From: Bradyrhizobium diazoefficiens
GTDB taxonomy: Bacteria; Pseudomonadota; Alphaproteobacteria; Rhizobiales; Xanthobacteraceae
Reading direction: 5' to 3' (one strand)
Assembly: GCA_018129965.1 (NCBI GenBank)
Contig: JAFCKW010000005.1
DNA: 32,000 bases
Part shown: positions 1,851 through 18,339 of the stretch, piece by piece
How positions within the stretch are numbered: position 1 is the first letter of the stretch
How the letters are laid out: every line of letters starts with the position of its first letter
The notes under the pieces: generated by a model
Seen by the model: only the letters and a program-made list of their open reading frames with translations
Databases searched by the model: none
Told to the model about the DNA's origin: nothing
Translations under genes and position numbers: made by a program

Positions 1851-3022
1851 GGCGAAACCGGCCTCTTGCCGATCGCAACTCCGGTCAATGTCTGGTTCAG
1901 GTGCATTGCGCGGTACTGTTCGCCGTAGGTGTGAAACCCGACCACCCGATTTTCGCGATAAAGTTCAGACATGTCGCGGGCGAATTGATGCTGTTCCGCA
2001 TCCAGCCGCCGAAACAGACATTCAAAGCCGATATAGAGCGAGACCTCGCCGATCTCTGCCCGTGTTTCAGCAAACAGCTCGAGCATTGCTCCGATCGGAT
2101 TACGGGCTTTCGCTACGGTGAGGACCATTCCTTCATCGATAGCGCAGTAAAAATTGAGAGATCCGTCGTCAGGATTTACCCGCTGGATCGAGCGTGCATA
2201 GTACGTGCCGCCGGCCCGGACAAGAACGGGATGAGAAGCAAACGAAAACATATCAAGGTGGGTGTCACCGATTCCAACTGCACGCGAATATTCCTGGGCA
2301 GCCGGCTCCGCATTCAGCTCCTTGACAACGCGCAATTCTATATCAGCTTCGGTTACCACCATCTTTGTCGATGTCGGCTCGAAGTTATCGCATTTGAATA
2401 GGCGAAAGGGCAGTGACGTTGTCAGAATGATCAGCACCGCGGCGTCGGTATGGGCCTGGCCGTCGCAAAAGACCCACGTCTGTCCAAAACGCAGACCGTC
2501 GCCCGCGGATCCTCCAACGACGTGAATATTATCGAGCGACGCGTAGAGCGCCGACATCACCACATCCTCGCGTTTGCACATGCCATCAATCAGCAAAAGT
2601 CCAAAGGATTGTCGATCCGCTACTTCTGGCGAACATCGTGTAAATTCTTGCCGCAGCTCGGCGCCAATTCTGCGGCCATCCTCGACCCGAAATTGGGCGA
2701 GATCGAGTAATGGCCTCGCGACTGCGCTAAAGTCCTGCGCGCTAAATCCCAGCGCGACAACGCTGTTGTCATCCCAGCCTCCGGGCGCAAGTTCGCCAGC
2801 AGTCGTGCAGCCATAGACCGGAATGGGTCCATAGATTTCAGCGATTTCAGCGGCAAACTCGTGCGGATCGTAGCAAGGCGAACAAAAGACGATAACAATC
2901 GCCAGTCCGTCCCTGGGCAGTTGCCGAGCAATCTCCGCCGCCGCCTCGACTGCCGACGACGCTTTCGCCTGGACGACGGCGACGCCAGATTCATTGCTGA
3001 ACCGGTGATCGGTCCTACCCAC
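1847..3022 (-). CDS. FIST-domain signal-transduction sensor protein
   Basis: FIST_N/FIST_C-like pattern (IVIVFCSPCYDPHEF, VYGCTTAGEL, LLLIDGM, VVGGSAGDG, GFHTYGE). The ORF track extends to 3106. I prefer the GTG at 3022, preceded by GAGAGGGA at about 8 nt. The extra N-terminal 28 aa look like read-through into IS debris. Confidence 0.7.
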   Translation of the reverse strand: MGRTDHRFSNESGVAVVQAKASSAVEAAAEIARQLPRDGLAIVIVFCSPCYDPHEFAAEIAEIYGPIPVYGCTTAGELAPGGWDDNSVVALGFSAQDFSAVARPLLDLAQFRVEDGRRIGAELRQEFTRCSPEVADRQSFGLLLIDGMCKREDVVMSALYASLDNIHVVGGSAGDGLRFGQTWVFCDGQAHTDAAVLIILTTSLPFRLFKCDNFEPTSTKMVVTEADIELRVVKELNAEPAAQEYSRAVGIGDTHLDMFSFASHPVLVRAGGTYYARSIQRVNPDDGSLNFYCAIDEGMVLTVAKARNPIGAMLELFAETRAEIGEVSLYIGFECLFRRLDAEQHQFARDMSELYRENRVVGFHTYGEQYRAMHLNQTLTGVAIGKRPVSP

Positions 3023-3244
3023 CTGGTTGATCCCTCTCTCGTCAGCCTTGGTGCGTTGCCAAGGCGTTTTTCTTTCGATGATAGGGCTTTCTTCCGACCG
3101 CCGCAAGAATATGCAACAAAACTCGGCAGGTTGCCCTGCAGGCGGAACTGCTCAAAGGCCGCCATCCATATCTTCTGACGGTGCTTCTTCCGATTGCGAT
3201 CGCCGGTGACTGGCCTGCTAACTAAGGGGTCGTGCCGCGCGGTG

Positions 3245-3726
3245 CTAGACTGGAACGCCCGCACGCTTCAAACGCACCGGATTGCTCGTCCAGCTCCCGG
3301 GAACGAAGAGACGTAATGCCACCATTGGCGTCAGCGACACCAATGTTTGGCAATTGGCCATCTTGCCGAAAGATGAGACATGTTGCGGAGCGACACCAAC
3401 CGAACGAACGCCCTTCTTCGGAATCGCTGTGTCATTGATGACCGGCACCGCATATTTGCCGCCGACGAGGCGGTCGGCCTGAATCAACAGTTCCGACTCC
3501 AACGGCGCCGCATCCCAGACGCCATCAGCGATGAAATGGTGCAACTGGTCATAGTCGCCCGGCGCCAGCCGCGCCGCCATAGGCTGGACGCTCTTGCGAT
3601 CGCCCGGCGCGCCCTGTGACCCAGGCAATCCAGGAACGGCTCAAGCCAGCGCGCAAGCTCTTCTTCCCACCTCGACTGTGTTTCCAACATGGTCGGCCGT
3701 CCAAAAGCCGACCACCCATGGATCAT
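3245..3726 (-). mobile_element. IS701-like DDE transposase remnant (N-terminal part, frameshifted and truncated)
   Basis: Two frames carry consecutive N-terminal transposase pieces. These are WEEELARWLEPFLDCLGHRARR (3484-3726 frame), then RKSVQPMAARLAPGDYDQLHHFIADGVWDAAPL...INDTAIPKKGVRSVGVAPQHVSSFGKMANCQTLVSL (3245-3628 frame). The catalytic C-terminal half is absent. Weak similarity may continue to about 3110. Confidence 0.6.
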
Positions 3727-3787
3727 TGAAAACCTGATTCGGGAATCCAGTTGCGCCGATCAAACCAAAAAATCTGCCAAAGTAGCG

Positions 3788-4090
3788 CTAGGCAATTTCT
3801 CGGGCTGTTTGAGTCTGTTGTGCGAACTCGTGCGGCGTCAAGTTGCCGAGTGATGTATCAGACACTCCGCGCGGATGGACCCGTTGAAGGTTTTGATGAA
3901 CGCGTTGTCGCGTCGGCTTGCCTAACCGGCTGAAGTCCAGCGTGACGCTTCGTTGACAGGCCCACAGATCGAGGTCGCGTGAGACAAACTCCGTTCCCGG
4001 CTCGACACGGACTAAGGCGGCCATCTTGGCGCGACCAATTCGTCGATGAGCTCAAGACGGTCGGCTTGGTGCTATCCGCGGAGAAATTGA
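3788..4090 (-). mobile_element. IS3-family transposase (OrfB integrase-core C-terminus) remnant, frameshifted with internal deletion
   Basis: VRVEPGTEFVSRDLDLWACQRSVTLDFSRLGKPT, then in the next frame DNAFIKTFNGSIRAECL, then LGNLTPHEFAQQ. This is the canonical DNGxEF...FSRPGKPTDNAxIExFNG...ECL...LGxxTPxEFA string broken over frames. Confidence 0.55.
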
Positions 4091-4449
4091 GAGGCTTTCC
4101 TTTGACGTGAAGGTAACGATCAGGCCCAGTGCGGGCCAGCCGGGTTGAACTGCCGTGACGCAAGGTCAATCTGTGTGCGGAGGACGCGGGTCGGGCAGGG
4201 ACGGCGGGATCTGGCTGCGGGATGGGGCTGGGTTGAGCCTGCGGTTTGGACCAACCTGCCAAGCTGGACGACTTATAGTGAAGCCGCCGCCTCGGGCCGC
4301 TGCCTTCCGCCTGCCTATTAACCGCAGAAATTCACGAAATGCTTACCATCGTTATGTTTTAACAACCGCGCAGGTCTCGTATGCACGAAGGATACATCGA
4401 GATCAGGCTTGTATTCGAGCGGGGATAAATACCGTCTGGGGATACTGTC

Positions 4450-6135
4450 GTGCGTTCGGATCAAAACTATTTGCTGCAAGCCATCCTTGACAATTTCCCC
4501 GGCGGGATCTCGGTCATGGATTGCGACCTGCGCATCATCTTTGCCAATCCGGCGGCGCGCCGAGTTCTCGATCTGCCGGACAGCATGTTTGTCGGTGATC
4601 CGCCCTTTCTCGAAGAAATATTCCGCTTCAACGCACGCCGCGGCGAATACGGACCCGGCGACGTCGAACAACAGGTTTCGGCCCGAATAGAACTGGCGAA
4701 GGCGCGAAAGCCTCACGTATTCGAACGCCAACGTCCCGACGGGATTACCATCGAGGTCCGGGGCGCTCCGGTCGAAGGCGGCGGGTTCGTCACAACATAT
4801 ATCGACGTGACAGAACGGCGCCGCAATGAAGCCCGCATCGAACACATGGCCCATCACGACGCGTTGACCGAACTGCCAAATCGCGTGCTGTTTCATAAAC
4901 GCCTGGGCGAAGAACTCGCGCGCATCGCCCGCGGTGGCAATCTCGCCGTGCTATGTCTCGACCTCGACCACTTCAAGAATGTCAACGATACGCTCGGTCA
5001 CCCGGTCGGGGACGTGCTGCTCAAAATGGTGGCGGAACGGCTCAGCAATTGTTTGCGCGACACCGATGTCGTCGCGCGCTTCGGCGGCGACGAGTTCGCG
5101 GTTATCATGCCGATAATAGATGGAGATCGCGACGCCGAAGGGCTGGCGCGCAAGCTGATTGATGTTCTGGGTTCCCCTTACGAAATCCAGGGGCAAGAGA
5201 TCATTGTCGGGGCCAGCATAGGCATCGCGATTGCACCACGCGATGGCGATGCCACCGAGGGGTTGCTGCGCAATTCAGACATTGCCTTGTACCGTGCCAA
5301 GGTGGATGGCCGCGGGCGTTTTAGCTTTTTTGAGCCGGAAATGGATCGGCGTATCCAGGCGCGGCGGACGCTCGAGCTCGAGCTTCGCAAAGCCTTGAGC
5401 AACGGCGAGTTTGAACTCTACTATCAGCCGGTGGTCAATTTGCGAAGTGGCGACGTCAGCGGCTTCGAGGCCTTGCTGCGATGGCATAATCCCGAGCGCG
5501 GCATGGTTTCGCCAGCCGAGTTCATTCCTCTCGCCGAAGAGACAGGCCTCATTATTCCGCTGGGCGAATGGGTCTTGCGCAAAGCCTGCGCCGAAGCGAT
5601 CACCTGGCCGCTCCCCATTAAAGTGGCCGTAAATCTTTCGCCAGTCCAGTTCAAGAGCCGCAATCTGGTCCAGGCTGTTCTGACCGCGCTGGCTTATTCG
5701 CGGCTGCCGCCCGGGCGGCTGGAGCTGGAGATCACCGAAACCGTGCTTCTAGGCGACACCGACGCGAATTTGGCCACCCTCCATCAACTGCGCGAACTCG
5801 GCGTGCACATTTCGATGGACGACTTCGGCACCGGCTATTCTTCGCTAAGCTATCTGCGCAGTTTCCCGTTCGACAAGATCAAGATCGATCAATCGTTCGT
5901 GCGCGAGCTCACGGAACGGCCGGATTGCATGGCAATCGTCCGCGCGGTTGCCGGCCTTGGAACGAGTCTTGGCATCACGACGACGGCGGAAGGGGTCGAA
6001 ACACAGGAACAGTTCGACCGCCTTTGTGCCGAGGGTTGCACCGAAATGCAGGGATATTTGTTCAGCCCGCCACGGCCGGCAAGCGAAGCTGTGATGTTGA
6101 TGTTGAGAAACTCTGTCATGGTCGATGTCGCTTGA
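4450..6135 (+). CDS. PAS-GGDEF-EAL cyclic-di-GMP turnover protein
   Basis: N-terminal PAS-like segment (LLQAILDNFPGGISVMD). GGDEF domain with an intact RFGGDEFAV motif. EAL domain with FEALLRW, ELEITE, DDFGTGYSSLSYL and QGYLF motifs. GTG start. Confidence 0.9.
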   Translation: MRSDQNYLLQAILDNFPGGISVMDCDLRIIFANPAARRVLDLPDSMFVGDPPFLEEIFRFNARRGEYGPGDVEQQVSARIELAKARKPHVFERQRPDGITIEVRGAPVEGGGFVTTYIDVTERRRNEARIEHMAHHDALTELPNRVLFHKRLGEELARIARGGNLAVLCLDLDHFKNVNDTLGHPVGDVLLKMVAERLSNCLRDTDVVARFGGDEFAVIMPIIDGDRDAEGLARKLIDVLGSPYEIQGQEIIVGASIGIAIAPRDGDATEGLLRNSDIALYRAKVDGRGRFSFFEPEMDRRIQARRTLELELRKALSNGEFELYYQPVVNLRSGDVSGFEALLRWHNPERGMVSPAEFIPLAEETGLIIPLGEWVLRKACAEAITWPLPIKVAVNLSPVQFKSRNLVQAVLTALAYSRLPPGRLELEITETVLLGDTDANLATLHQLRELGVHISMDDFGTGYSSLSYLRSFPFDKIKIDQSFVRELTERPDCMAIVRAVAGLGTSLGITTTAEGVETQEQFDRLCAEGCTEMQGYLFSPPRPASEAVMLMLRNSVMVDVA

Positions 6136-6187
6136 GCGTGGGTTGAACTTCGATTCCGCGATAGTGACATTCTCCGATACATTTTTG

Positions 6188-6280
6188 AGACTGTACGGCA
6201 TGCATGGATGCCGGCCTGATCAAGGGCGAAGCCTTCGTCGTCGATGCAAACATTAGCGAAGCAGACGCCAGCCGTTGTCA
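6188..6280 (+). mobile_element. Short fragment resembling an IS5/IS1182-type transposase
   Basis: Translation ACMDAGLIKGEAFVVDANISEADASR resembles the conserved GLvxGExFAvDaSxIxADAS stretch of IS1182/IS5-type transposases. About 30 codons only, with stops on both sides. Confidence 0.35.
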
Positions 6281-6289
6281 CGGCAACAC

Positions 6290-7014
6290 CCTGCCATTGA
6301 GTTGATAGACGACGACATACAAAGTCGTGCGTGAAAAATTTCTAAGCCATTGAGCGCGAGTCAGTTTTTGGCTCGCTTGCGGGTTTGAGATTGCAGGGTT
6401 CAGGCGCGCACAACCTTCGTGGCGCCTCCGGCCGCGCGTCGCAAGAGGTTTTCGTCGAGCTGGCGTCAGCGGTCTTGTATCAATGTATCCGGTCTCTGAT
6501 TGGAGCGAGTTTTGCTCCGGACCAATATGGATATCAGCGCGCGCGCGTGCGATCTCATTATGGACAGGCCTCAACGGGCCATTTGGGTCACCAGTGTCGC
6601 ATGCGCCGGTAAGACCGATCCTGCATCTCTTCTTATCCTCTCGCAAACCTCATCGAGTAAAGGGTGCGGTGGCTTGCCAACAGCATGGGCTCGACCGCCT
6701 GCTTGAGCCGCGTCTTCTCTATCGCGACCATCTCGGTCGACTGGCGACAGCGCCTTCAGGGCTTGCTGTTCGGCGGAAGACAGCGGGCGGATCTCGTCGA
6801 TCATGACAAGAGCGAAGCGCGCAATCAGCCGCGCGTCCAGCCTGTCGGTCTTGGCGCGCCGCCCCTCGGTCTCGCGGAAGGCCTTGATGCGGCGCGGATT
6901 AACGATGCCGATCGCCTCCAACATGAGGCGGCTAACACCCTCGTGCCGGAGCCTGCGGATGCCATCGGCGATGGTAAGCGAAGGCGCTTGCTGCGCGAAC
7001 GAGGCTGCTGTCAT
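6290..7014 (-). mobile_element. IS110-family transposase remnant (multiple frameshifts and deletions)
   Basis: IVNPRRIKAFRETEGRRAKTDRLDARLIARFA is the hallmark N-terminal IS110 (DEDD) motif. The following LKALS.R..EMVAIEKTRLKQ segment appears in a shifted frame. The N-terminal EATG region is deleted and the C-terminal part is only vaguely recognisable. Confidence 0.55.
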
Positions 7015-7350
7015 GGATTAGACTTGTATGCCGACTTGCAGCGCCAGGCCGCCGTCCTTGCGACTGTTCGATCGAGAGACCCGACGCAGACGCCGTTGCC
7101 GGGCTACGACCGCGCCCGCGGCCAGGAATCCAACGAGCTGTCTGCTTCGCCTGTCACTCTACAGTGACGAGGCCAAGATACCGGAATCCACTTTTCGGGA
7201 TCAGGCCCTTGGGCCGGACGCCAGTCGGATAGGTCCGTCAGGCGCTTCAGCAACGACCGCGGGCAGGTGGGACCCTAATACTAAAGGACCGTATCCCAAG
7301 TCATAGGACAATAGTTGACTAAGTTATCATCAGCGAGAGGAGGCGGGACT

Positions 7351-8130
7351 ATGCATGCCATCTTGGAATCTGAGCCGCGGGCGGCTGACCCGCAAAAAAC
7401 GAAAAAGATGATCAATCTCGTGCCGGTGGCCATCTCCTGGGGAGTGCTGCTCGCCATCTACGTAGGGCTTCGGCTTTACCAGCAGGCATTTGCGTTCAAG
7501 TACGGCCTGGATTCGACATCCCCCGAATTTGCGACCTACTGGCTGACGCTGTTCAAAGTCGAGGTACCGCTTATTTTCGGGGTGGGCTTCGCCATTTGGG
7601 CCTACCTTTGGCTCACCCGGGATAAGAACCTCGACAAGATCGACGCCGAAACGGAACTGCGCCGCTACTTTAGCCTCGTCGCGTGGTTTTTGCTGTATAC
7701 GTTTTCTTTTCTGTGGATTGCTAGCTTCTTTGGTGAGAGCGATGCTAGTTGGCATCAAACCGTGATTCGCGACACCGCGCTTACTCCCAGCCATATCGTC
7801 GTATTTTACGCTTGTATTCCACTGTATATCATCTTGGGCGTTAGCAGCCTTCTATATGCTACCACGCGGATTCCCAAATTCTCAAAAGGCTATTCGGTGC
7901 CGCTCATCATGGCTGTGCTCGGGCCCGGGCTCATTCTGCCGAACCTTGGCTATAACGAGTGGGGCCACGCGTTCTGGCTCACTGAAGAAATCTTCAGCCA
8001 TCCGCTCCATTGGGGCTTCCCGGTTCTTGGGTGGACCGGCTTTGCTCTTGGCGGCGTCCTTCTTCAGGCGACCATGAGGATGGCGGAGCTTTTCAAAGAG
8101 ATCGATGGCGCAAACTTGGCGAAAGCCTGA
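7351..8130 (+). CDS. pmoC: Copper membrane monooxygenase subunit C (PmoC/AmoC family), divergent
   Basis: FFGESDASWHQTVIRDTALTPSHIVVFY gives Asp-x3-His-x12-His. NEWGHAFWLTEEIFSHPLHW gives Asn-x3-His-x13-His. Both have the spacing of the PmoC metal sites as I recall them. Multiple TM helices. ATG at 7351 is preceded by GAGAGGAGG with 7-nt spacing. The TTG at 7315 in the ORF track is unlikely. Confidence 0.9.
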   Translation: MHAILESEPRAADPQKTKKMINLVPVAISWGVLLAIYVGLRLYQQAFAFKYGLDSTSPEFATYWLTLFKVEVPLIFGVGFAIWAYLWLTRDKNLDKIDAETELRRYFSLVAWFLLYTFSFLWIASFFGESDASWHQTVIRDTALTPSHIVVFYACIPLYIILGVSSLLYATTRIPKFSKGYSVPLIMAVLGPGLILPNLGYNEWGHAFWLTEEIFSHPLHWGFPVLGWTGFALGGVLLQATMRMAELFKEIDGANLAKA

Positions 8131-8170
8131 CGCCTTGGCTGATGCCGGCGATGGTGGACAATGCGAATGT

Positions 8171-8218
8171 AGGCGGTGTCTCTGCTGAATCGACTGACTG
8201 ACAGGTAGGACACCGCCT
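8171..8218 (+). promoter_or_regulatory. Intercistronic stem-loop between subunit C and A genes (10-bp perfect stem, 28-nt loop)
   Basis: AGGCGGTGTC (8171-8180) is the exact reverse complement of GACACCGCCT (8209-8218). No U-tract follows, so it is not a canonical intrinsic terminator. The loop contains GACTGACTGAC. Confidence 0.5.
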
Positions 8219-8269
8219 TCGGCAAAGAACCGTTGCCTAATCATAAGAATACGAATTACCGGGGGGAGC

Positions 8270-9073
8270 ATGACTGACAACGATCAGGCAATTTTAGCTG
8301 CGGCAGAAATGTCGCCAAGAATAGCGCGCTATTCACGAACTTTCGACTACCTGATTGTCGTCATAGCTGCCTTCCTTGTATGGTCTGTTACGCACATCCA
8401 TTTTCTCCTTTTCGCTGGGGACTGGGATTTTTTTATTGACTGGAAAGACAGACAGTATTGGATTCTGATAACGCCGATAGTCTCCATAATGTCGGCCGCG
8501 GCATTTCAGGCGATTTTCTGGTCTCTATTTCGCCTGCCAATCGGAGCGACAGCTAGCGCACTTCTGTTCCTGATCGGCGTCTGGATTGTCAGATACCATA
8601 GTTGGGAAGGCATGGCCTACTTCCCGCTCAGTCTCGTTGTTCCAGCGACCGGTCTAGTCGGAGCGATGGCGCTCGACTGCATCCTCGTGCTGAGCCGAAG
8701 CTGGGTTATAACGGCCGTGTTCGGCGGCGTTATTTATGGTCTCTCGTTCTTTCCGACAAACTGGATTTATCTGGCGCCATATTTCCAGCCAGCAGAGCAT
8801 ATGGGTGAGATGGCGTCTGTTGCCGATATCATCGGCTACGTCTTTCCTCGTTCAGGCACGCCTGAATACATAAGAATTATCGAACGCGGAACCTTGCGCA
8901 CGTTCGGCGACTCCGCAAACTGGGTCTCAGCATTCTTTTCTGCGTTCGTTTGCATATTCGCCTACTCGGTGTTCTGGTTGATGGGTGTGGCCGCTTGCAC
9001 ACCCAAATACATACCGGTGGGATACCGCTTCAAGGAGCTTTATGGCGCTAAAATCGATGCGGGTGCCGTATGA
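8270..9073 (+). CDS. pmoA: Copper membrane monooxygenase subunit A (PmoA/AmoA family), divergent
   Basis: HIHFLLFAGDWDFFIDWKDRQYW and RSGTPEYIRIIERGTLRTFG match the two most conserved PmoA/AmoA blocks. Polytopic membrane protein. GGGGGGAG SD sits before the ATG. About 20 aa longer at the C-terminus than the PmoA sequences I recall. Confidence 0.9.
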   Translation: MTDNDQAILAAAEMSPRIARYSRTFDYLIVVIAAFLVWSVTHIHFLLFAGDWDFFIDWKDRQYWILITPIVSIMSAAAFQAIFWSLFRLPIGATASALLFLIGVWIVRYHSWEGMAYFPLSLVVPATGLVGAMALDCILVLSRSWVITAVFGGVIYGLSFFPTNWIYLAPYFQPAEHMGEMASVADIIGYVFPRSGTPEYIRIIERGTLRTFGDSANWVSAFFSAFVCIFAYSVFWLMGVAACTPKYIPVGYRFKELYGAKIDAGAV

Positions 9074-10329
9074 GCAAGATATTGAAAAAGGCGACGTTGC
9101 TCGTTTTGGCCGCGACGACATTGCTATTTTCCCTTATGGATCAGGCCGCATTCGCGCACGGCGAGCGGGCGACCGAGCCTTACATCAGAACGCGCACTGT
9201 GCATTGGTATGACGTCACTTGGTCAACCGATGCGCTTAACGTCAACGACACAGTAACCGTCCAGGGCAAGTTTCACTTATTGAACGATTGGCCGGATTCG
9301 GTGAGTCTGCCCAATCTGGTGTTCCTTTCCAACGGCTCGCCCGGCGCCGTCATGACCCGCGTAGAATCGTACATCAACGAAATTCCCGCACGGCAGTCCA
9401 CCAAGGGTTTGATCATCGGACGGGATTATGACTTCAAACTCGTTATGAAGGCGCGTAAGGTGGGACAGTGGCACCTTCATCCGGTCATGAACATCCATGG
9501 GGCCGGGGCGGTCGTTGGGCCGGGAGAATGGATAACTGTCAGCGGCAACGAAGCGGATTTCAAGGATCCGCTCACGACCTTGACTGGAAACAAGATCGAC
9601 GATCTGCAAACGTTTGGCGTTTCACGCGTGCAGATGTGGCAGTTTGGGTTCGGGCTGATTGCCGCGGTGTGGATCCTATGGTGGCTGCGCAGGCCCCTCA
9701 TCATTTCGCGCTGGCTCGTGGTCCAGAAGGGGCGAGAGAACCTTCTCATCACTCCAATGGACGACAAGGTTGCGGCGGGGCTGCTGGTCCTCTTGGCGAT
9801 GGTGGTGCTGGTCGGATACACCAGAACGACGTCCGAGTTTCCGGAACTGGTTCCGCTTCAATCGGGGTCTCTCTCCGCGCCGCCACTGCCCAAGCCGCCC
9901 CACGCGGTTGAAGTCAAGTTCAAGAGGGCCGAGTACGACGTTCCCGGTCGGTCCATGCGCTTGAGCGTAGAGATGACCAATACGTCCGATCAACCCGTGA
10001 GCGTTGGCGAGTTCACCACCGCTAACCTGCGTTTCATAAATAAGAGTCTTCCTGCGGCGGTGGCGGCAGTCAGTTCGAAATTTCCGAAGGAGCTGGTCCC
10101 CCGGAACGGCCTTGTCATCGACAATCCGGAGCCGCTTGCACCTGGTGAAAGCCGTCTGGTGAACCTGGATACAACGGATGCGGCATGGGAAGTAGAACGT
10201 CTGGTGAGCTTTCTTTCTAACGTTGACAGTAGAATGGGCGGATTGCTGTTTTTCTATGACGGGAAAGGCAACCGCTCCATGAGCGAAGTATACGGGCCCA
10301 TTGTTCCAGTCTTCAAAAAGACGATCTGA
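9070..10329 (+). CDS. pmoB: Copper membrane monooxygenase subunit B (PmoB/AmoB family), divergent
   Basis: The signal peptide ends AAFA|HGE, so the mature N-terminus is His30. HGERATEPYIRTRTVHWYD...GKFHLL and GQWHLHPVMNIHGAGAVVGPGEW align with PmoB copper-ligand blocks. Two central TM helices are followed by a C-terminal beta-rich domain. ATGA overlap with the subunit A stop. Confidence 0.9.
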   Translation: MSKILKKATLLVLAATTLLFSLMDQAAFAHGERATEPYIRTRTVHWYDVTWSTDALNVNDTVTVQGKFHLLNDWPDSVSLPNLVFLSNGSPGAVMTRVESYINEIPARQSTKGLIIGRDYDFKLVMKARKVGQWHLHPVMNIHGAGAVVGPGEWITVSGNEADFKDPLTTLTGNKIDDLQTFGVSRVQMWQFGFGLIAAVWILWWLRRPLIISRWLVVQKGRENLLITPMDDKVAAGLLVLLAMVVLVGYTRTTSEFPELVPLQSGSLSAPPLPKPPHAVEVKFKRAEYDVPGRSMRLSVEMTNTSDQPVSVGEFTTANLRFINKSLPAAVAAVSSKFPKELVPRNGLVIDNPEPLAPGESRLVNLDTTDAAWEVERLVSFLSNVDSRMGGLLFFYDGKGNRSMSEVYGPIVPVFKKTI

Positions 10330-10358
10330 AGCCAGGTTTAATAGGACGAAGCTGCGCG

Positions 10359-10967
10359 ATGGTCGATAAGCTCACGATCAGGAGGTACTCCAGATCGGCA
10401 TTGCGCGGCCTTTCGTTTGCAGTGCCTCTGCTGGTTTTGTCGTCCCAGCCGGCCTCTTCCCACGGTGGCGTCAGTATGGAAAATGACGTGTGTAGGCTCC
10501 GATTGGGAGCATACATCATGCACTTTACCGGGTACCAGCCGCAAGCAACCGGCAGCAGGGAGTTCTGCGAAGACATTCCGGAGACCGGCAAAACCGTGGT
10601 GGTGCTGGACGCGGTTGATGAGGCTCTGCGCGACATCCCGATCGAGGTGCGAATCGTGCGGGATACGGGAGACAACAGCAATTTGGAGACCATCACCGTT
10701 GTGCACCTGCAGCCCAAAGTTTACCCCTCTGGCAGCATTGCCTTGGAATATACGTTCGACAAGGCTGGAAAATTTATCGGACTGGTTACCGCGGGCGCAA
10801 AGGGCGAATACGTCTCACGGTTTCCCTTCAGTGTGGCTTCTGGAAAGTCGTTCTACGAGAAATACCTGCTTTTCATCGTAGTTCCATTGGTAGGATTTGC
10901 CTTATATCGTTATTCGGCACGTGTCAGAAAGAAATTGGACACCCGCCTAAGTATACCACCAAACTAG
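10359..10967 (+). CDS. Secreted, C-terminally membrane-anchored beta-rich protein of unknown function (PmoD/AmoD-like architecture; possible copper protein)
   Basis: Lies 29 nt after the subunit B gene on the same strand. The signal peptide ends PASS|HGG, giving His35 as the predicted mature N-terminus. Has Cys45-x8-Met54-His55 plus Cys70. About 125 aa with alternating beta-strand-like pattern. One C-terminal TM helix (YLLFIVVPLVGFALY) is followed by a basic tail (RVRKK). Confidence 0.6.
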   Translation: MVDKLTIRRYSRSALRGLSFAVPLLVLSSQPASSHGGVSMENDVCRLRLGAYIMHFTGYQPQATGSREFCEDIPETGKTVVVLDAVDEALRDIPIEVRIVRDTGDNSNLETITVVHLQPKVYPSGSIALEYTFDKAGKFIGLVTAGAKGEYVSRFPFSVASGKSFYEKYLLFIVVPLVGFALYRYSARVRKKLDTRLSIPPN

Positions 10968-11065
10968 CTGGGATAAGGCCGGTGATTGTTTGGCCAGGAG
11001 GGGGAACGGGCCTTGCCGCCAAGCTCGCTAGGAGAGCTAGCGCGACCGGCGAGGCGAAGCTGAGG

Positions 11066-12001
11066 ATGCGCGTTGTAATTGCGCTTGTGGTGGCATCGTG
11101 TTCTGGATGCTCCGGATCATCGGAGCCGCCGGAGGGGACTTCGGTCGTCAGCTTCGACTATGCGCACGCTGTGCGCCGCGGCTCCTGTTCCCCCGGCAGC
11201 AAGCCGGCCGGAGCAGGTGCCACCGACGGCCTCACATCGCGCGATGGCTTTCATTATAACGTGAGGGCACCTGCAAACCTCGATCCGACCTATGCGCATC
11301 CGCTGCTCGTCGTCTATGCGCCGGCGGGCTATGATGCGAAACAGAGCGAATCCCTCACCCGCCTCACCACCGAGGCAACCCGCAGCGGCTTCGTCGTGGT
11401 TTATGTCGGTAGCCGTCCTCTATCGGTGAAGACGATAGAAAAACTTGCGCAGCTACCTAAAGAAGTTGCCGCCGTTTGGTGCGTCGATCCAAATCGAGTG
11501 TATGCGACCGGCCACTCCGATGGCGGAACGGTGTCCATTGCGCTCGCCGTTCTGGAAGAGACTACAGGCACCGTGTCGGCAATTGCTCCGAGCGCCGCGG
11601 GCTTCTCTCGGAAAGACCTCGAAGCCTTTCGATGCCCGAAGCCCATTCCGGTGATGGTCATGCACGGCAAGCAGGACACACATTTTCCGGGCTGGGGAAA
11701 GGAAGCCGCCCTGTGGTGGGCGCGCTGCAATGCCTGTAACATTAGAAGATTGCCTGTGTCGCAAGACAATGGGTGCCTCGCCTTCCAGGGTTGCGCGCCC
11801 AACGGGACCACGATTTACTGTGAGGGCGGCGGTTCTCATAAGGACTGGCCGCCGTTGCAAAACGAAATATTGCGATTTTTCGAATCCGTCAGCTCGCTGG
11901 GGATGCGGCAAGGAACTCTGCAAGCTGGCCAACTTTCGGAAGATATCCGGCGTCATGGTCTAACCATTCGTCTGCTGCACGAATCTCGCTGTTGCCTATG
12001 A
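11066..12001 (+). CDS. Lipoprotein alpha/beta-hydrolase, PHB-depolymerase/LpqC-type esterase family
   Basis: Lipobox VVASC directly after MRVVIAL. Nucleophile elbow GHSDGG, acid-residue block VMHGKQDTHFP and His block GGGSHKDWP. The ORF track starts at 10982, but ATG 11066 gives a sensible lipoprotein signal. Confidence 0.7.
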   Translation: MRVVIALVVASCSGCSGSSEPPEGTSVVSFDYAHAVRRGSCSPGSKPAGAGATDGLTSRDGFHYNVRAPANLDPTYAHPLLVVYAPAGYDAKQSESLTRLTTEATRSGFVVVYVGSRPLSVKTIEKLAQLPKEVAAVWCVDPNRVYATGHSDGGTVSIALAVLEETTGTVSAIAPSAAGFSRKDLEAFRCPKPIPVMVMHGKQDTHFPGWGKEAALWWARCNACNIRRLPVSQDNGCLAFQGCAPNGTTIYCEGGGSHKDWPPLQNEILRFFESVSSLGMRQGTLQAGQLSEDIRRHGLTIRLLHESRCCL

Positions 12002-12345: not shown

Positions 12346-12520
12346 ATGACAGAGCTTGTGCCGCCGGATCTGATCCCAAACTGGATCCCCGGCGAGAAGA
12401 TCGTGGACAGTTCTCACCTTGGCTGGAGCGGCCTAACGCTCAAAGGGTATCACTATCCTGACCAGGAAGCGAACATTCCCTTAATGCGCGACTACATGAT
12501 CGTTATCTATGAAGGCGCCG
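12346..12520 (+). pseudogene. N-terminal fragment of an AraC-family regulator (truncated)
   Basis: MTELVPPDLIPNWIPGEKIVDSSHLGWSGLTLKGYHYPDQEANIPLMRDYMIVIYEG resembles the cupin-type N-terminus of AraC regulators. The frame then runs into the antisense of the reductase remnant. No HTH domain is present. Confidence 0.4.
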
Positions 12521-13482
12521 CAGTCGGCGCCGGCGCCTTGAGGCCACAGAGGCTGCGCGCGGCGATCTGGGCCTGCGACGTGGCATTGTGGATCGTCTCG
12601 ATCCGGAAGCGCCCGCCAAGGTAGGGGTTATCCGCGGCGGTGCAATCGCCGATGGCATAGATCTTCGGGGCGGAACTGCGCATGTGGCTGTCCACGACGA
12701 TGCCGTTCGTGCAGGTCAGACCCACCTGACCGCCAGTCCGTGATTGGGCACCGCGCCGATCCCGACGATGACCAGATCCGCCGCAAACGCCTCGCCGCTG
12801 TCCAGGATGCAGGCGCTGACCCTGCCATCGCTGCCCGCGATCGAGCTCAGCCGGGTGTTGAGCCGGATATCCACACCCTCGGTTCGGAGCCGCTTTGTCA
12901 CAAGGTTGGAAGCAGAGGGCGTCGCGACCCGCGCCATGACGCGGCCGGCAGCCTCGATCACCGTGACCCGCTTGCCCTATTCGACAGCCGCCGACGCGAT
13001 CTCCAATCCGATCACCCCGCCGCCTAGAATGGGAAGCGAGGTGCAGCCGGCGAGCGCTTCCTTCAGGCCCCGCGCATCGGAAAGGCTGCGCAGATAGCAG
13101 ACGCCGTTCAGGCCGGCCCCCGCGCAGTGCGCTGGATCCGGTTGCCAGGATCAGCGCCTCATAGGGATACGCCCTGCCTCCCTGGTGACGACTCTGCTGC
13201 GGGCGCGGTCGATCTCGACAACCTTGGCGCCGGTCTCGAGCTGGATTCGGTTCTGTTCGAAGAACGGCTCCGGCTTCAGCCGGGTCGCCGCGCCCCGGTG
13301 GCAAGAAATGCCTTTGAAAGTGGTGGCCGCTGATAGGGCGCCACAGTTTCCGCGCTCAGCAGCGTGACTCGGCCTTCAAAGCTGTGTTGCCGCAGCCAGG
13401 ACGCGGCGTAGACGCCGGCGGTTCCAGCTCCGACGATGACGATACTCTCCTCCATTAGCGCATCCTTTTCTGTTCCGGCCAA
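12507..13482 (-). pseudogene. Rubredoxin/ferredoxin-NAD(P) reductase (AlkT-like FAD pyridine-nucleotide-disulfide oxidoreductase), pseudogene
   Basis: The pieces lie in order over three frames. They are IVIVGAGTAGVYAA...APYQRPPLSKAFL; YPYEALILATGS; GVCYLRSLSDARGLKEAL...ILGGGVIGLEIASAAVE-TAG-GKRVTVIEAAGRVMARV...DLVIVGIGAVPN; and GIVVDSHMRSSAPKIYAIGDC...RIETIHNATSQAQIAA. There are at least three frameshifts and one in-frame TAG. The C-terminal roughly 80 aa are missing. Confidence 0.85.
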
Positions 13483-13499: not shown

Positions 13500-16103
13500 T
13501 CAGATCAGATTGCGACGCTCGGCCTCGCTGATGGCCTGCACGCGGTTGCGTGCTTTCAGGTCAGCGAAAATCTTGCGCATATGCCATTTCACCGTGTCTT
13601 CGCTGACCAGGAGCTGGTCGGCGATCCGCTTGTTCGAAAGTCCATCGCGGGCAAGTCGCAGGACGCTGATCTGCCGGACGGACAGCGTGGTAAGCTCGGG
13701 GGGGAGCGAGGGCCGCTCAGTCCTTGGCCTTGGCCTGGCGATCCCGTCGAAATCGAACGTGACAAAGGCATCGGCGGATGCCGGGGTCAGGGCCAGCAAC
13801 AGATCCCGCGTGTCTAGCCCAGTCCGATAGCATCCCAACTGCTTGATGAGTTCGAAGGCATTGACCGCCTTTCGTCGTGCGGGTGTCAGCGCTCCGGCGG
13901 CGGCATGGGCCGCGGCTTCGCACATCAGCGCGCGCACTTCCAATCGACCAGCGCCGATCGACCGGGCGATCTTGGCAGCCGCCTCGGCATTGCGGCGGGC
14001 GAGGCTGTGCTGCCGCTTGGGGATGGCTTCCATCGCGCGCAACAGCGATATTTGAGCACGCATGGGTCTTGCATGGGGCCCGGACAGGACCTCACCAGAG
14101 TCCCTCGGCAGCAGGTGGTCGACGTCGTGCGTACCGCTGAAGAGGGCCAGTTCGGCAAGTTCCAACTCGATCAGCACTCCCAGTCGCGGCAACGACCTTT
14201 CCGCCGCAAGCGCGCGTGCCCGTTCCAGCAACGCCGCGGCGCCCCTGATATTGCCCTTGGCCCGATGCCATGTCGCGATGACGCGGCTCACACCGTAGAA
14301 CACGTCGGTGACGCCGTAGTTGAAGATGAAGTCAAGCAAGCCGGCGATGGAATTCTCGTCGAAATCCAGCCGCCGTTGCTCGAACAGCGTCTCAAGTTCC
14401 AGAGCGATCAGCATCTTTGACGAAAAGGATGTACGTGTCACCTCAACATCGCTGTCATTGCGGGCGGTATCGATAAGCTGCAATGCGGCGCGCATGTCGC
14501 CCCGGGCGAGAGCCGCGTGGATCTCGGCCGCATAAAGCCAGCCAAAAGCATAGCGCTGGCGCGCGGCGCTGTTGACCGAATGGGCCATGATCAGGGCCTG
14601 CTTCAGTTCGTCAAACCGGTATTCACTGGCCAGCATGAAGGCCAGACAGGTGAGTGCCGCACCCTTACCGACGGAATTATCGTCGCCGAAGTTTTGGATC
14701 CAGTCGTTGCACAGCCGTTCGCTCAATTGCAGTTCGTCATGGGTAGCAGCACCAATCGCGCGGACCAGTTGCAGCCAGCCGCGGTCAGGATGCGCGCCGG
14801 ACGGCGTGCGCGGGGCGGGCAGATAGGCCAGCAGCTTTTCGGCTTTGTCGGCCTGCTGGCTGAAATACATGGTCCAGGCGTAGCTGAGGCAGATGATCGG
14901 ATGCTTGCGCAACTCGCGGGCTGGGAAACGGCCAAGCCATTCGCGCAACGCCTCGATCTCGCCCTGGCGCAGGGCGAGATCGAGCATGATGTCCTCGCTC
15001 AGTCCCAGCGCCCAGCGGTGGTCGCCCGCCCGCAGCGCAAGGTTTACCGCCCTCTGGAACTCGCGCCTCCGCCAGTGCCAGAAGGCCGCGCGTTTCAGGA
15101 CATAGGATTTTCGCTCGGCACTGCGCGCCAAAAACCGATGCTGAAGGTAGTCGCGTAGAACCGGGTGCAACGAGAATAGCGTCGGGCCGCTTTCGGCCGG
15201 GCGAAACAGCAAATGATCGAGGTTGATCTCCTCGATCAGCGCGGCGGCGTTGGTGGACTTGTAGGCGTAATTGTAGCTTTCCGCCGAAATCGGGTCGATC
15301 ATCGCTGCGTTTTCAACGAACTCAAGCTGCTGGCGCGACAGGCGCCTCTCGATCTCCTCGTGGAGGAAGGTTACCGTTTCAGGCCAGTTTGCCGCGGGCC
15401 GGACCGGCAATTCGGTCCGGCACATGATGTGGCAGAGCGCGGGCCAGCCCTGCGTCTCCGCGATCATCTGCTGCGCCGTTACGTTGGGGACCGGGTGCAC
15501 CTTCAAGAACGCTTCGGCATCATCCAAGGTAAAGGCCAGATCGCGGGCATAGACCTCCCGCACTCCGCTTTCGAGCCCAAGCCGGGCAAAACCGCGCCGG
15601 GTATCCCCGGCGATAGCGAATCGGACATTCGGCGGACTTTCCAGCGCGAAGGTTTCCAGTGCGTGCAGCAGAGCGGGTGCGTGTTCGATGTCGTCGATGC
15701 AGATTACCTTGGCCGGCCGCTCAGCGCCGAATTCTTCCCATAGCGTGGACACCAACTCGGCCAGATCCGCCGGGACCGCCCGGTTTTCGCGGGGCGCTGC
15801 GTCGAGCAGTTGGCTGCAGATGGCCTCTGCCAGCGCGCCTTCCGTTCCGCATCCGTCGCGCAAAGACACCCAGGCCGCGTTGTTTCCAGCCGCCCTGAAG
15901 GCCAACCAGTTCTGCGCCAGAACGACTGATTTTCCATAACCCTGCGTTGCGCGCAGGATCAGTGTCCGGAGCTCCGGTTGGCCTGAAAACGTAAATCTGG
16001 GCCGCGCGATACAGCCCTTGGCGATCGTCTCCAGACGCGCGGAAATGCGGGCGGCAAGCAGCCGTCCCGAATGTATCGGGTCGTCGCTGGTATCCATGGT
16101 CAT
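13500..16103 (-). CDS. AlkS-like LuxR/MalT-family (STAND ATPase + TPR-like + LuxR HTH) transcriptional activator
   Basis: 867 aa. N-terminal P-loop ATQGYGKS. Long helical-repeat middle region. C-terminal LuxR HTH LSVRQISVLRLARDGLSNKRIADQLLVSEDTVKWHMRKIFADLKARNRVQAI. Divergent from alkB and followed 17 nt later by the reductase remnant, as in the alkST arrangement. Confidence 0.85.
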   Translation of the reverse strand: MTMDTSDDPIHSGRLLAARISARLETIAKGCIARPRFTFSGQPELRTLILRATQGYGKSVVLAQNWLAFRAAGNNAAWVSLRDGCGTEGALAEAICSQLLDAAPRENRAVPADLAELVSTLWEEFGAERPAKVICIDDIEHAPALLHALETFALESPPNVRFAIAGDTRRGFARLGLESGVREVYARDLAFTLDDAEAFLKVHPVPNVTAQQMIAETQGWPALCHIMCRTELPVRPAANWPETVTFLHEEIERRLSRQQLEFVENAAMIDPISAESYNYAYKSTNAAALIEEINLDHLLFRPAESGPTLFSLHPVLRDYLQHRFLARSAERKSYVLKRAAFWHWRRREFQRAVNLALRAGDHRWALGLSEDIMLDLALRQGEIEALREWLGRFPARELRKHPIICLSYAWTMYFSQQADKAEKLLAYLPAPRTPSGAHPDRGWLQLVRAIGAATHDELQLSERLCNDWIQNFGDDNSVGKGAALTCLAFMLASEYRFDELKQALIMAHSVNSAARQRYAFGWLYAAEIHAALARGDMRAALQLIDTARNDSDVEVTRTSFSSKMLIALELETLFEQRRLDFDENSIAGLLDFIFNYGVTDVFYGVSRVIATWHRAKGNIRGAAALLERARALAAERSLPRLGVLIELELAELALFSGTHDVDHLLPRDSGEVLSGPHARPMRAQISLLRAMEAIPKRQHSLARRNAEAAAKIARSIGAGRLEVRALMCEAAAHAAAGALTPARRKAVNAFELIKQLGCYRTGLDTRDLLLALTPASADAFVTFDFDGIARPRPRTERPSLPPELTTLSVRQISVLRLARDGLSNKRIADQLLVSEDTVKWHMRKIFADLKARNRVQAISEAERRNLI

Positions 16104-16156
16104 CGACGTCTCAAAGCACGCACGAATGAGCGTAGGATACTTGTTTGGAACACAAG

Positions 16157-16176
16157 AACTACACCTAAGTGTAGTT
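16157..16176. promoter_or_regulatory. Perfect 8-4-8 inverted repeat in the divergent regulator/alkB promoter region (candidate operator)
   Basis: AACTACAC-ctaa-GTGTAGTT. Lies 54-73 nt upstream of the regulator start and 116-135 nt upstream of the alkB start. Confidence 0.45.
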
Positions 16177-16291
16177 GTGGATCCTGACGCAATGATCTCC
16201 GCTTGCTCGGTCGCCCGCTCGGGAACCGGGAAGGGCGTACTGGTGTCACCTGCCGCGCGATGAATGGTGGGGTCAAGGGAGGATATGCCGA

Positions 16292-17494
16292 ATGATCAAT
16301 ACGCCAGAACAATCCGCTTCAACCGTGGGGTACGTTGACCACAAGCGCTATCTCTGGATGCTGTCCACCCTGTGGCCGGCAACGCCGATGATCGGGCTGT
16401 GGCTGGTGGCGCAGACCGGTTGGAGCATCTGGTACGCCCTGGTCCTGATCATCTGGTACGGGATGGTGCCGCTTCTGGACGCGATGTTCGGCGAGGATTT
16501 CAACAACCCGCCGGAAGAGGCCGTCGAGATGCTCGAGAAGGACCGATACTATCGCGTCCTAACCTATCTGACCGTGCCGATCCATTATGCAGCCCTTCTG
16601 GTGTCGGCCTGGTGGGTCAGTACCCATGCGATGTCTTGGCCCGAAATCATAACCTTGGCGCTCTCGCTGGGAATCGTGAACGGCCTCGCGCTGAACACCG
16701 GGCATGAGCTCGGGCACAAGAAGGAGACTTTCGACCGCTGGTTGGCCAAGCTGGTGCTTGCGGTTGCGGGTTACGGTCATTTCTTCATCGAGCACAACAA
16801 GGGCCATCACCGCGACGTTGCCACCCCGATGGATCCCGCGACCTCACGAATGGGCGAAAGTATCTACCAATTCTCCACCCGCGAGATCCCCGGTGCCTTC
16901 CGCCGCGCCTGGGCACTCGAGGAAGAGCGTCTGTCGCGCCGGGGCAAAAGCGTTTGGAGCCTGGAGAACGAGATTTTGCAGCCGATGCTGATCACCTTCG
17001 CGCTCTATGCGGGCCTGCTGGCCTTTTTCGGCCCCCTGATGCTGGTCTTCCTTCCGATCCAGATGGCGTTCGGGTGGTGGCAGCTGACTAGCGCCAACTA
17101 CATCGAGCATTATGGCCTGCTGCGTGAGAAGCTGCCCAATGGCCGCTACGAGCACCAGAAACCGCACCACTCGTGGAACTCGAACCACATCGTGTCGAAC
17201 CTGATCCTGTTCCATTTGCAGCGCCATTCGGATCACCACGCGCATCCGACGCGGTCCTACCAATCGCTGCGCGACTTCAAGGATCTGCCGACGCTGCCCT
17301 CGGGCTATCCGGGCATGTTCTTCATCGCGCTGATCCCGGGCTGGTTCAGGTCGGCTATGGACTCGCGCGTGGTAGATTGGGCCCATGGCGATCTGAGCAA
17401 GATTCAGATCGAGGATGGCAAGCAAGCGTTTTACGAACGCAAGTTTGGCACGGTCGGCACCGACGCTAAGCCCGGCCTGGTTGCTGCCGAGTGA
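16292..17494 (+). CDS. alkB: Integral-membrane alkane 1-monooxygenase (AlkB, di-iron)
   Basis: All histidine boxes are present: HELGHK, EHNKGHH, NYIEHYGL and LQRHSDHH. TM-rich N-terminal half. 400 aa. Confidence 0.95.
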   Translation: MINTPEQSASTVGYVDHKRYLWMLSTLWPATPMIGLWLVAQTGWSIWYALVLIIWYGMVPLLDAMFGEDFNNPPEEAVEMLEKDRYYRVLTYLTVPIHYAALLVSAWWVSTHAMSWPEIITLALSLGIVNGLALNTGHELGHKKETFDRWLAKLVLAVAGYGHFFIEHNKGHHRDVATPMDPATSRMGESIYQFSTREIPGAFRRAWALEEERLSRRGKSVWSLENEILQPMLITFALYAGLLAFFGPLMLVFLPIQMAFGWWQLTSANYIEHYGLLREKLPNGRYEHQKPHHSWNSNHIVSNLILFHLQRHSDHHAHPTRSYQSLRDFKDLPTLPSGYPGMFFIALIPGWFRSAMDSRVVDWAHGDLSKIQIEDGKQAFYERKFGTVGTDAKPGLVAAE

Positions 17495-17722
17495 AGCGCC
17501 ATCTTCCGCGCCGCTCTGGCTTGCCGAGCGGCATGGACACCCGACACCACAGCCCCGAGCCGCACGACTCGTTTCAATCGTCGAGCGGCAGCGGCTGGCC
17601 ATGTGGGGCGGTCAGGCCGTGCGATAGGATAGGGGGCCGCGCGCCGATCACGGAGAAGACCAGAGATAGCTGCCATTCGGCCCGGCAAAACCGGATCGGC
17701 GGAAAAGGGAGGAAATAGGAAC

Positions 17723-18283
17723 ATGGCCAGGTACCAGTGTCCCGATTGTAAATACACCTATGACGAAACGCTGGGCCATCCGCATGAAGGATTTCCTGCA
17801 GGCACTGCTTGGGCCAACGTGCCCGACGAATGGGCTTGCCCCGATTGCGCAGTGCGCGACAAGGTCGATTTCGAATTAATCGGCGGATCGCCCGCCGCTA
17901 CCACGTCGGCTACTCAGGCCGTCGAGGTTGCCGCGGCGGCACATAGCGCCGTAACGGTCACTGACACCGCAGTGATCGAGAAGCCCGCCAGCCCGATGTC
18001 GGAACCGGCAGTGCGAACGACAGGCGTCCTGCGGGCCGTGGCCTCGGCCCCGGAGGCTATGCAATCCGAAGCGGTCGTCATGGACGGCAAGTCCCCCTCT
18101 GCTGGCTGCAAGCCCTTTGCGAAATGGATATGCATCACCTGCGGCCATATCTATGACGAGGCGCTTGGTGATGCGTCCGATGGCTTCGCCGCTGGGACGC
18201 GGTTCGAGGATATTCCTGACGATTGGTGTTGCCCGGACTGCGGCGCAACGAAAAAAGACTACGTTCTTTGCCAGGAAACTTAG
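17723..18283 (+). CDS. alkG: Two-domain rubredoxin (AlkG-type)
   Basis: Two complete CxxC...CxxC rubredoxin modules ([12 protein letters not shown]...WACPDCAV and [12 protein letters not shown]...WCCPDCGA). They are joined by a roughly 70-80 aa Ala/Thr/Ser/Val-rich linker. GGGAGG SD. Confidence 0.92.
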
Positions 18284-18339
18284 TCAATCCGTGTCGGCAA
18301 AGTGTATCGGGCCGATCAGGCCTGCTATGGAGGTCAACC

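Follow-up and report, generated by a model that had tools for sequence, protein, structure and literature searches.

PmoD and AmoD proteins are defined by a signal peptide, a periplasmic domain in which two cysteines are invariant, and a transmembrane helix at the C terminus, and 98.5% of the members of this family occur in species that possess a copper membrane monooxygenase (CuMMO) (PMC6189053). In PmoD of Methylocystis sp. Rockwell (Met49242_1452, Protein Data Bank [PDB] entry 6CPD), a homodimeric CuA site is formed via Cys41, Met49, and His51, within the motif Cx7MxHxnC (PMC6189053). A second operon-associated class, with the motif Cx8MHxnC, accounts for 13.4% of family members and is described there as "annotated in AOB as amoD," AOB being ammonia-oxidizing bacteria (PMC6189053). 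This class includes NE0941 and NE2060 of Nitrosomonas europaea, in both of which the position called H1 is a histidine (Fisher et al. supplementary table, PMC6189053), and the same supplementary table lists Bradyrhizobium sp. ERR11 (with a PmoD–CopC fusion), Bradyrhizobium sp. Ai1a-2, and Solimonas aquatica as "other" organisms with Cx8MHxnC proteins. Here, we analyzed a 202-residue open reading frame (ORF) at 10359-10967 on the plus strand of a 32,000-nt stretch of DNA from Bradyrhizobium diazoefficiens (contig JAFCKW010000005.1, hereafter the window). It is the fourth of four closely packed plus-strand genes, the first three of which encode the C, A, and B subunits of a CuMMO (Table 1), and we refer to its product as the D protein.

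The D protein is clearly homologous to PmoD. When its sequence was used on its own to search all PDB sequences with phmmer, there was a single match, PmoD 6CPD, with an E value of 3e-19 over residues 43-157, and a profile made from 90 sequences of the family again matched nothing in the PDB but 6CPD (E = 2.4e-30). An AlphaFold2 (AF2) model of the mature sequence is a nine-strand β-sandwich followed by one long C-terminal helix, with a mean predicted local distance difference test score (pLDDT) of 85.6 and a predicted TM-score of 0.68, the first 10 residues being of low confidence (pLDDT of ~59). In a Foldseek search of the PDB, the top matches to this model were the two chains 6cpd_B and 6cpd_A (E = 1.2e-12, TM-scores [TMt] of 0.84 and 0.80, 34% identity), with a root-mean-square deviation of 2.6 Å to 6cpd_B, while the matches that come next are generic Ig-like folds with E values of 2e-4 or above. 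CopC, PCuAC, and classical cupredoxins, which had been put forward along with PmoD/AmoD as folds worth comparing, were absent from the top 50 Foldseek matches. There are 564 homologues with E ≤ 1e-3 in a large protein database, and an exhaustive search of representatives at 50% identity returned 644 clusters. Since the E values to PmoD are so low and homologues so numerous, chance similarity can be excluded. The initial annotation had recognized in this ORF the layout of PmoD/AmoD copper proteins, a proposal on which sequence homology, the 6CPD fold, and the motif class described below now agree. It had also suggested that the protein may be a distant PmoD relative; a relative it is, but the homology is too plain for "distant" to stand.

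Next to the fold, the ligand motif places the D protein within the family. Cys45 and Cys70 fall at the positions of Cys41 and Cys65 of PmoD and are invariant in close homologues (119 of 119 and 121 of 121, respectively), and the stretch C45-RLRLGAYI-M54-H55...C70 corresponds exactly to the Cx8MHxnC (AmoD) class. His55 aligns with PmoD His51, whereas Ile53 occupies the position of PmoD Met49, so that the CuA motif is not matched. The CuA-forming class has its methionine eight and its histidine 10 residues after the first cysteine. Since the methionine of the D protein lies nine residues after that cysteine and Ile53 is found in place of Met49, it should not be classed with the CuA-type PmoDs. 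Methylocystis PmoD and the D protein thus share 34% identity, a cupredoxin-like fold, both cysteines, an aligned histidine ligand, and an in-operon position, but they differ in that 1) the methionine is shifted by one in the D protein (Ile53-Met54-His55), 2) Met42 and Met44 of the PmoD crystal structure are replaced by Arg46 and Arg48, and 3) Methylocystis PmoD has a Glu at H1 and a longer N-terminal segment.

AmoD (orf5) of AOB, for which we take Nitrosospira and NE0941/NE2060 as references, is a closer counterpart. The D protein is 53% identical to, and of equal length with, a Nitrosospira protein (P0101) encoded within a cluster arranged as amoC-amoA-amoB-AmoE (190 residues)-AmoD-copC-copD. 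P0101 was identified as AmoD because it is the second gene of the amoE/amoD pair, and the D protein is only 33% identical to AmoE of that same cluster. AmoD of AOB and the D protein have in common a signal peptide, an A-x-A↓HGG site (the arrow marks predicted cleavage), the C-x8-MH...C motif, a β-sandwich, a transmembrane helix, and a gene located after that for B. In contrast, AmoD of β-AOB is preceded by its paralogue amoE and followed by copCD, whereas the window has a single D gene directly after B; furthermore, its CuMMO subunits are only 40-49% identical to AmoCAB of Nitrosospira, and alkane-oxidation genes adjoin. AmoE (orf4) of β-AOB and comammox Nitrospira belongs to the same family and also exhibits an A-x-A↓HG N terminus and two cysteines, but it is only 28-39% identical and displays the motif Cx7MxHxnC or a variant of it. 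We consider it very likely that the D protein belongs to the AmoD type (Cx8MHxnC) within the PmoD/AmoD family, and we predict it to be a membrane-anchored periplasmic copper accessory for the CuMMO. The family assignment is not new in kind, and is in that respect ordinary, as Fisher et al. 2018 list members from Bradyrhizobium and Solimonas.

The architecture of the D protein is that expected for this family. Its signal peptide has an n-region spanning residues 1-16 with a net charge of +4, an h-region of 12 residues (17-28, GLSFAVPLLVLS), and a c-region that reads SQPASS (Ala at -3, Ser at -1), immediately followed by HGG. We predict cleavage at Ser34↓His35 on the basis of these features together with conservation, since an A-x-A↓HG site is found in homologues as well. 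The proteomics of the family detected no signal peptides (PMC6189053). The last 19 residues, which hold six Lys/Arg and one Asp/Glu, fit an N-out, C-in anchor. Much of what had been read by eye in the initial annotation was correct, including the signal peptide, the β-rich domain with a single C-terminal transmembrane helix and a basic tail (which the AF2 model and hydropathy bear out), the 29-nt gap to the B gene, the positions of His35, Cys45, Met54-His55, and Cys70, and the Cys45-x8-Met54-His55 cluster, which we now equate with Cx8MHxnC. The ORF begins 29 nt past the B stop codon (the B gene ends at 10329), and a terminator scan found no terminator-like site between the two. We infer that B and D are cotranscribed because the gap is this short and lacks such a site. 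The B subunit itself contains the HLH motif of the CuB site and a predicted A-x-A↓His-Gly mature N terminus (AAFA↓HGERATEPY). Two proteins of the operon, B and D, would thus begin with a free His-Gly if both predicted cleavages are true.

We wondered how regularly such proteins are associated with CuMMOs. A scan of one genome per species of the GTDB gave 479 stretches encoding relatives; 79 retained loci and three Nitrosospira-type loci were compared with the proteins of the window. The best relative is in Bradyrhizobium manausense SZCCT0118, whose D protein is 99% identical and whose DNA is 98.2% identical across 2378-11886 of the window (9.5 kb); the host of the window is a B. manausense-like strain. 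In proteobacteria that are not nitrifiers, a homologue is found directly 3' of the B gene in all 40 loci, a single D copy being present in 39 of them, and the C-A-B set is complete in 37, the other three being cut by contig ends. These 40 loci come from Nevskiaceae, Sterolibacterium, Rhodocyclales, Rhodoferax, Acidovorax, Methylibium, Hyphomicrobium, and several Bradyrhizobium species. The gene order is C-A-B-E-D in Nitrosomonadaceae, while comammox Nitrospira have E-D-D2 arrays; amoC, A, or B is seen at the same locus where the contig or flank extends far enough, which is so in a minority of cases. The survey of co-occurrence that had been proposed for this ORF thus revealed a gene adjoining that of CuMMO subunit B, rather than a family widespread in genomes lacking CuMMOs and devoid of conserved Cys, His, or Met positions. 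In addition, copC and/or copD are present in the flanks of 66 of 85 related loci.

A few loci stand apart. A Rhodocyclales metagenome-assembled genome (MAG) encodes three D paralogues, two before C and one after B (L012, 3243-4542 and 7860-8534), each with an A↓HG N terminus and the C-x8-MH motif. MAGs labeled Klebsiella pneumoniae or Bordetella parapertussis (L010, L019, and L033) carry C-A-B-D loci, and a partial copy of the D protein of the window (cluster member P0277) is filed under Enterococcus faecalis; these labels look like mislabeled taxonomy or contamination in public records.

How might such a protein act? It would be exported by the Sec machinery and cleaved after Ser34, whereby His35 would become residue 1, and its C-terminal helix would tether the domain to the inner membrane on the periplasmic side, leaving the basic tail in the cytoplasm. 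Copper would be bound by a cluster close to the N terminus, consisting of Cys45, Met54, His55, and possibly His35 and Cys70. The D protein would then serve its cotranscribed CuMMO as an accessory factor rather than as a catalytic subunit, in copper acquisition or loading, i.e., the maturation or repair of copper sites. We predict that it probably supplies the monooxygenase with copper or helps it to mature. Two published observations are in line with this: deletion of pmoD in Methylosinus trichosporium OB3b causes a copper-dependent growth defect (PMC6189053; 2026 review), and proteins of every class tested bound copper in vitro, including one with only CxnC (PMC6189053).

Several points weigh against this reading. 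Pfam and NCBIfam scans of the ORF returned no family, only a spurious match to UL21a (E = 0.034), and public records label the protein "hypothetical protein," labels that are explained by the lack of a PmoD model in Pfam and NCBIfam. Copper binding by the Cx8MHxnC subclass is extrapolated from the other, tested classes, since Fisher et al. report no copper-binding or spectroscopy test of a representative of it (PMC6189053), and AmoD has, according to a 2026 review, received little study. For the family as a whole, copper loading, electron delivery, and stabilization have all been proposed as roles (PMC6189053), and cryoelectron microscopy structures of particulate methane monooxygenase (pMMO) and ammonia monooxygenase (AMO) have not shown PmoD bound (2026 review). 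Within the 32-kb window, neither copC nor copD is present, which weakens the copper-trafficking context. Finally, cleavage at Ser34↓His35, on which a free histidine depends, is a prediction.

That histidine, likened in the initial annotation to the N-terminal His of histidine-brace copper sites, is where that annotation goes past what has been published on the family, and its strong conservation supports the idea as a hypothesis. An A-x-A-type site followed by His-Gly is found in all 114 close homologues that cover it, and in the fetched loci, those AmoD- and AmoE-type paralogues whose 5' end is intact have A↓HG 9-11 residues before the first cysteine. Among representatives of the 50%-identity clusters that cover the site, 114 of 129 (88%) have His, 112 of them as His-Gly, with Ala, Gly, or Ser at -1 in each of the 114 His-bearing sequences. 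The published ligand His (H2) is a histidine in only 108 of 148 of the same representatives, which makes His at H1 the commoner of the two. The third comammox paralogue, D2 (e.g., L028 2517-3119 and L034 8638-9261), has a different predicted mature N terminus, AQA↓QH(G/F/T)HEL, with Gln-His in place of His-Gly, and its usual H2 position is often Tyr or Leu.

Could the conserved His-Gly be a physiological copper ligand, in a mononuclear site resembling a histidine brace? We regard this as possible but less likely than not. It would have Cys45 and Cys70 joined in a disulfide and copper held by His55 and/or Met54 along with the free α-amine and the imidazole of His35, giving a mononuclear site suited to passing copper to the CuMMO. 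The D protein would resemble proteins with histidine-brace sites (the CuB site of PmoB/AmoB, CopC, and lytic polysaccharide monooxygenases [LPMOs]) in its predicted free N-terminal His followed by Gly and in its extracytoplasmic copper biology. The likeness comes down to one residue and to the N termini known for LPMOs and CopC, and neither homology nor a shared fold with CopC, LPMOs, or PCuAC was seen in the top 50 Foldseek matches or in the sequence searches. A free histidine would have escaped the published constructs, since all of these carry a vector-derived Ser-Met at the N terminus, the CuA-forming PmoD has Glu at H1, and the construct that was crystallized begins only three residues before Cys41 (6CPD; PMC6189053). 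The metadata table of Fisher et al. has an "H1" column, which the main text does not discuss (PMC6189053). We found no literature linking PmoD/AmoD to the histidine brace, which is weak evidence since the search left out most subscription journals, and where the 2026 AMO review speaks of a "His-brace," it refers to the CuB site of AmoB/PmoB rather than to AmoD.

Electron transfer is the first alternative to copper loading. Two tethered monomers would form a homodimeric mixed-valent Cu2S2 center of the CuA type bridged by their Cys45 residues, like the one that Methylocystis PmoD forms in vitro, and would feed electrons to the CuMMO, a role that is among those proposed by Fisher et al. (PMC6189053). 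The fold and family are indeed those of the CuA-forming PmoD, Cys45 and His55 occupy the places of the CuA ligands Cys41 and His51, and a methionine, Met54, is adjacent. However, the residue at the Met49 position is Ile53, and the Met49Ala substitution abolished CuA formation in PmoD; moreover, CuA is confined to Cx7MxHxnC homologues according to Fisher et al. (PMC6189053). The CuA species required prior reduction by dithiothreitol in vitro and the equivalent cysteines are disulfide bonded in the crystal (PMC6189053), and the species is reported to be unstable in oxygen (2026 review). Canonical CuA domains, as in cytochrome c oxidase subunit II and N2O reductase, share a cupredoxin-type β-sandwich according to the 6CPD paper, but their Hx34Cx3Cx3Hx2M ligand loop is absent from the D protein, in which the candidate ligands are near the N terminus instead (PMC6189053). 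We favor copper loading over electron transfer, which we judge unlikely, because of the unmatched CuA motif, the copper-dependent deletion phenotype, the linkage to copC/copD, and the demands of CuA with respect to thiols and oxygen.

A non-metal role comes close behind and is, in our estimation, slightly more doubtful. The D protein would be a structural or assembly factor with a Cys45-Cys70 disulfide that inserts, arrays, or stabilizes the CuMMO with no copper bound in vivo. The initial annotation had cautioned that these two cysteines could simply form a disulfide, an apt caveat given that Cys41 and Cys65 do so in 6CPD. Besides, no residues other than the two cysteines are invariant throughout the family, conserved ligands other than CxnC are missing from 29% of PmoDs, and stabilization is listed as a possible role (PMC6189053). 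Yet even the CxnC-only class, like all the others tested, bound copper in vitro (PMC6189053), and a purely structural role fails to explain why His-Gly, Met54, and His55 are near-invariant in the subclass. That the pmoD deletion phenotype depends on copper (2026 review) and that copC/copD are frequent neighbors also argue for copper loading rather than for a copper-free scaffold.

Far less probable is that the real product is a short, signal-less cytoplasmic protein of 149 residues starting at Met54 (or of 163 residues starting at Met40). This is how it appears in public Bradyrhizobium records that share its 90%-identity cluster, e.g., WP_249125012.1 (149 residues) and MBR1087726.1 (163 residues), in B. 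manausense and B. diazoefficiens; these PGAP/GenBank entries are all named "hypothetical protein." A good GGGAG lies 8 nt ahead of the Met54 ATG and likely attracted gene callers to that codon, hence the 149-residue calls. Against such a start, the protein-level conservation of residues 35-53 spans Alpha-, Beta-, and Gammaproteobacteria and Nitrospira, and H35, G36, D43, C45, and G50 do not vary among 114-119 close homologues or in an alignment with Nitrosospira AmoE among its sequences. Four relatives (L083, L084, L085, and L004) keep the open frame and the upstream ATG, which lies ~29 nt past the B stop codon after a spacer of similar kind, and in relatives with 75-87% identity most of codons 35-53 are either unchanged or altered synonymously. 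The short product would also be deprived of the first invariant cysteine of the family. Because the ATG is kept, the codons are mostly unchanged or synonymously altered, and these five residues are invariant, the 202-codon frame is, as judged from sequence conservation, real, and the public 149- and 163-residue calls are mis-started and N-terminally truncated. The region has other ORFs, two on the minus strand (10313-10717 and 10338-10706) and one in the +2 frame (10417-10881), but the 202-codon frame, conserved and supported by homology, accounts for it. Least credible of all is an unrelated accessory protein merely mimicking the PmoD architecture, which the initial annotation had entertained as an undescribed subunit and which the absence of Pfam and NCBIfam matches might seem to favor, but which is already refuted by the E values and TM-score to PmoD and the 53% identity to AmoD.

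Table 1. Features of the CuMMO operon, the D protein, and their surroundings in the window
Feature	Position	Strand	Basis or remark
CuMMO subunit C gene, first of the operon	7315-8130	+	Pfam AmoC 2.9e-87; NCBIfam AmoC_BACT 336 bits
CuMMO subunit A gene	8270-9073	+	Pfam AMO 1.6e-80
CuMMO subunit B gene	9070-10329	+	Pfam Monooxygenase_B 3.5e-132; NCBIfam AmoB_BACT 534 bits
B-D spacer, 29 nt	10330-10358	+	AGGA at 10343-10346, 12 nt 5' of the ATG
Signal peptide, residues 1-34	10359-10460	+	n-, h-, and c-regions; predicted signal peptidase I site A32-S33-S34↓H35
His35-Gly36, predicted mature residues 1-2 ("H1" of Fisher et al. supplementary table)	10461-10466	+	Conservation
His35, CAC	10461-10463	+	Sequence
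Periplasmic cupredoxin-like β-sandwich domain, residues 35-~165	10461-10853	+	AF2 and Foldseek
Cys45-x8-Met54-His55, candidate metal-ligand cluster	10491-10523	+	Alignment to 6CPD; ligand assignment PMC6189053
Cys45, TGT	10491-10493	+	Sequence
Internal GGGAG, 8 nt 5' of the Met54 ATG	10505-10520	+	Likely cause of the 149-residue calls
Met54-His55, ATG CAC	10518-10523	+	Sequence
Cys70, TGC, second invariant cysteine (PmoD Cys65)	10566-10568	+	Alignment to 6CPD
C-terminal transmembrane helix, residues ~168-186	10860-10916	+	Hydropathy; AF2 helix 131-163 of the mature chain
Basic cytoplasmic tail and stop codon	10917-10967	+	6 K/R, 1 D/E
PHB-depolymerase-family α/β hydrolase	10982-12001	+	Pfam AXE1 1.5e-05; NCBIfam esterase_phb 6.8e-05; dPHAscl type-1 1.7e-11
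Pyr_redox_2 (rubredoxin/ferredoxin-reductase-like) gene	12507-13482	-	Split over three frames, with stops inside
Alkane-oxidation genes adjoining the CuMMO	13500-21437		Members in the rows below
MalT/LuxR (AlkS-like) regulator, 867 residues	within 13500-21437	-	Ahead of the AlkB gene
AlkB-type FA_desaturase hydroxylase	16292-17494		
Two-domain rubredoxin	17723-18283		
Aldehyde dehydrogenase	18223-19791		
GMC oxidoreductase	19788-21437		

The genes that follow the operon bear on the nature of the CuMMO itself. Since a classical alkane-oxidation set adjoins it, the enzyme is more likely to be a hydrocarbon monooxygenase than an AMO or a pMMO, and we conclude from these neighboring genes that it probably is one. 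The first gene downstream of D encodes a hydrolase of the polyhydroxybutyrate (PHB) depolymerase family, whose matches are all weak, the two to NCBIfam models (esterase_phb and dPHAscl type-1) being far under the curated cut-offs. The likely start of this protein is Met28 of the ORF, which yields a lipoprotein-like "VVASC" signal (MRVVIALVVASC). Such a hydrolase is encoded in 19 of the 40 non-nitrifier loci, in 10 of them directly downstream on the same strand, and in none of the 42 nitrifier loci; the loci in which it recurs include L004, L005, L012, L016, L017, L020, L021, L025, L026, and L077. This recurrence suggests that these CuMMO clusters may have the hydrolase gene as a fifth, accessory member. 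The Pyr_redox_2 gene beyond it looks like a pseudogene, and synteny with B. manausense SZCCT0118 ends at ~11886, just upstream of this remnant.

There are also signs of mobility around the operon. The GC content is 53-60% in the first 11 kb of the window, operon included, vs. 59-65% further on, and a fragment of an IS110-family transposase lies just upstream of the C gene (6571-7014, minus strand), which together suggest, as a hint, horizontal acquisition. In a relative that is 75% identical (L083), the esterase-like gene is followed by genes for a copD–cytochrome c fusion, copC, FIST, and a histidine kinase. In the window, FIST and kinase genes similar to these are found on the upstream side of the operon (498-3106), and their upstream rather than downstream location suggests a rearrangement.

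Taken together, these findings have consequences for annotation and for the family. The "hypothetical protein" encoded after B in Bradyrhizobium and in many other Proteobacteria that neither nitrify nor oxidize methane is an AmoD-type PmoD, and the current 149- and 163-residue calls lose its signal peptide, N-terminal His, and first invariant Cys. If His35 is a ligand, the in vivo copper site and the role of AmoD/PmoD would need to be reexamined with a native N terminus. The idea of PmoD as a protein specific to oxidizers of methane and ammonia is weakened, as a fixed C-A-B-D unit is widespread in CuMMO lineages of probable alkane oxidizers.

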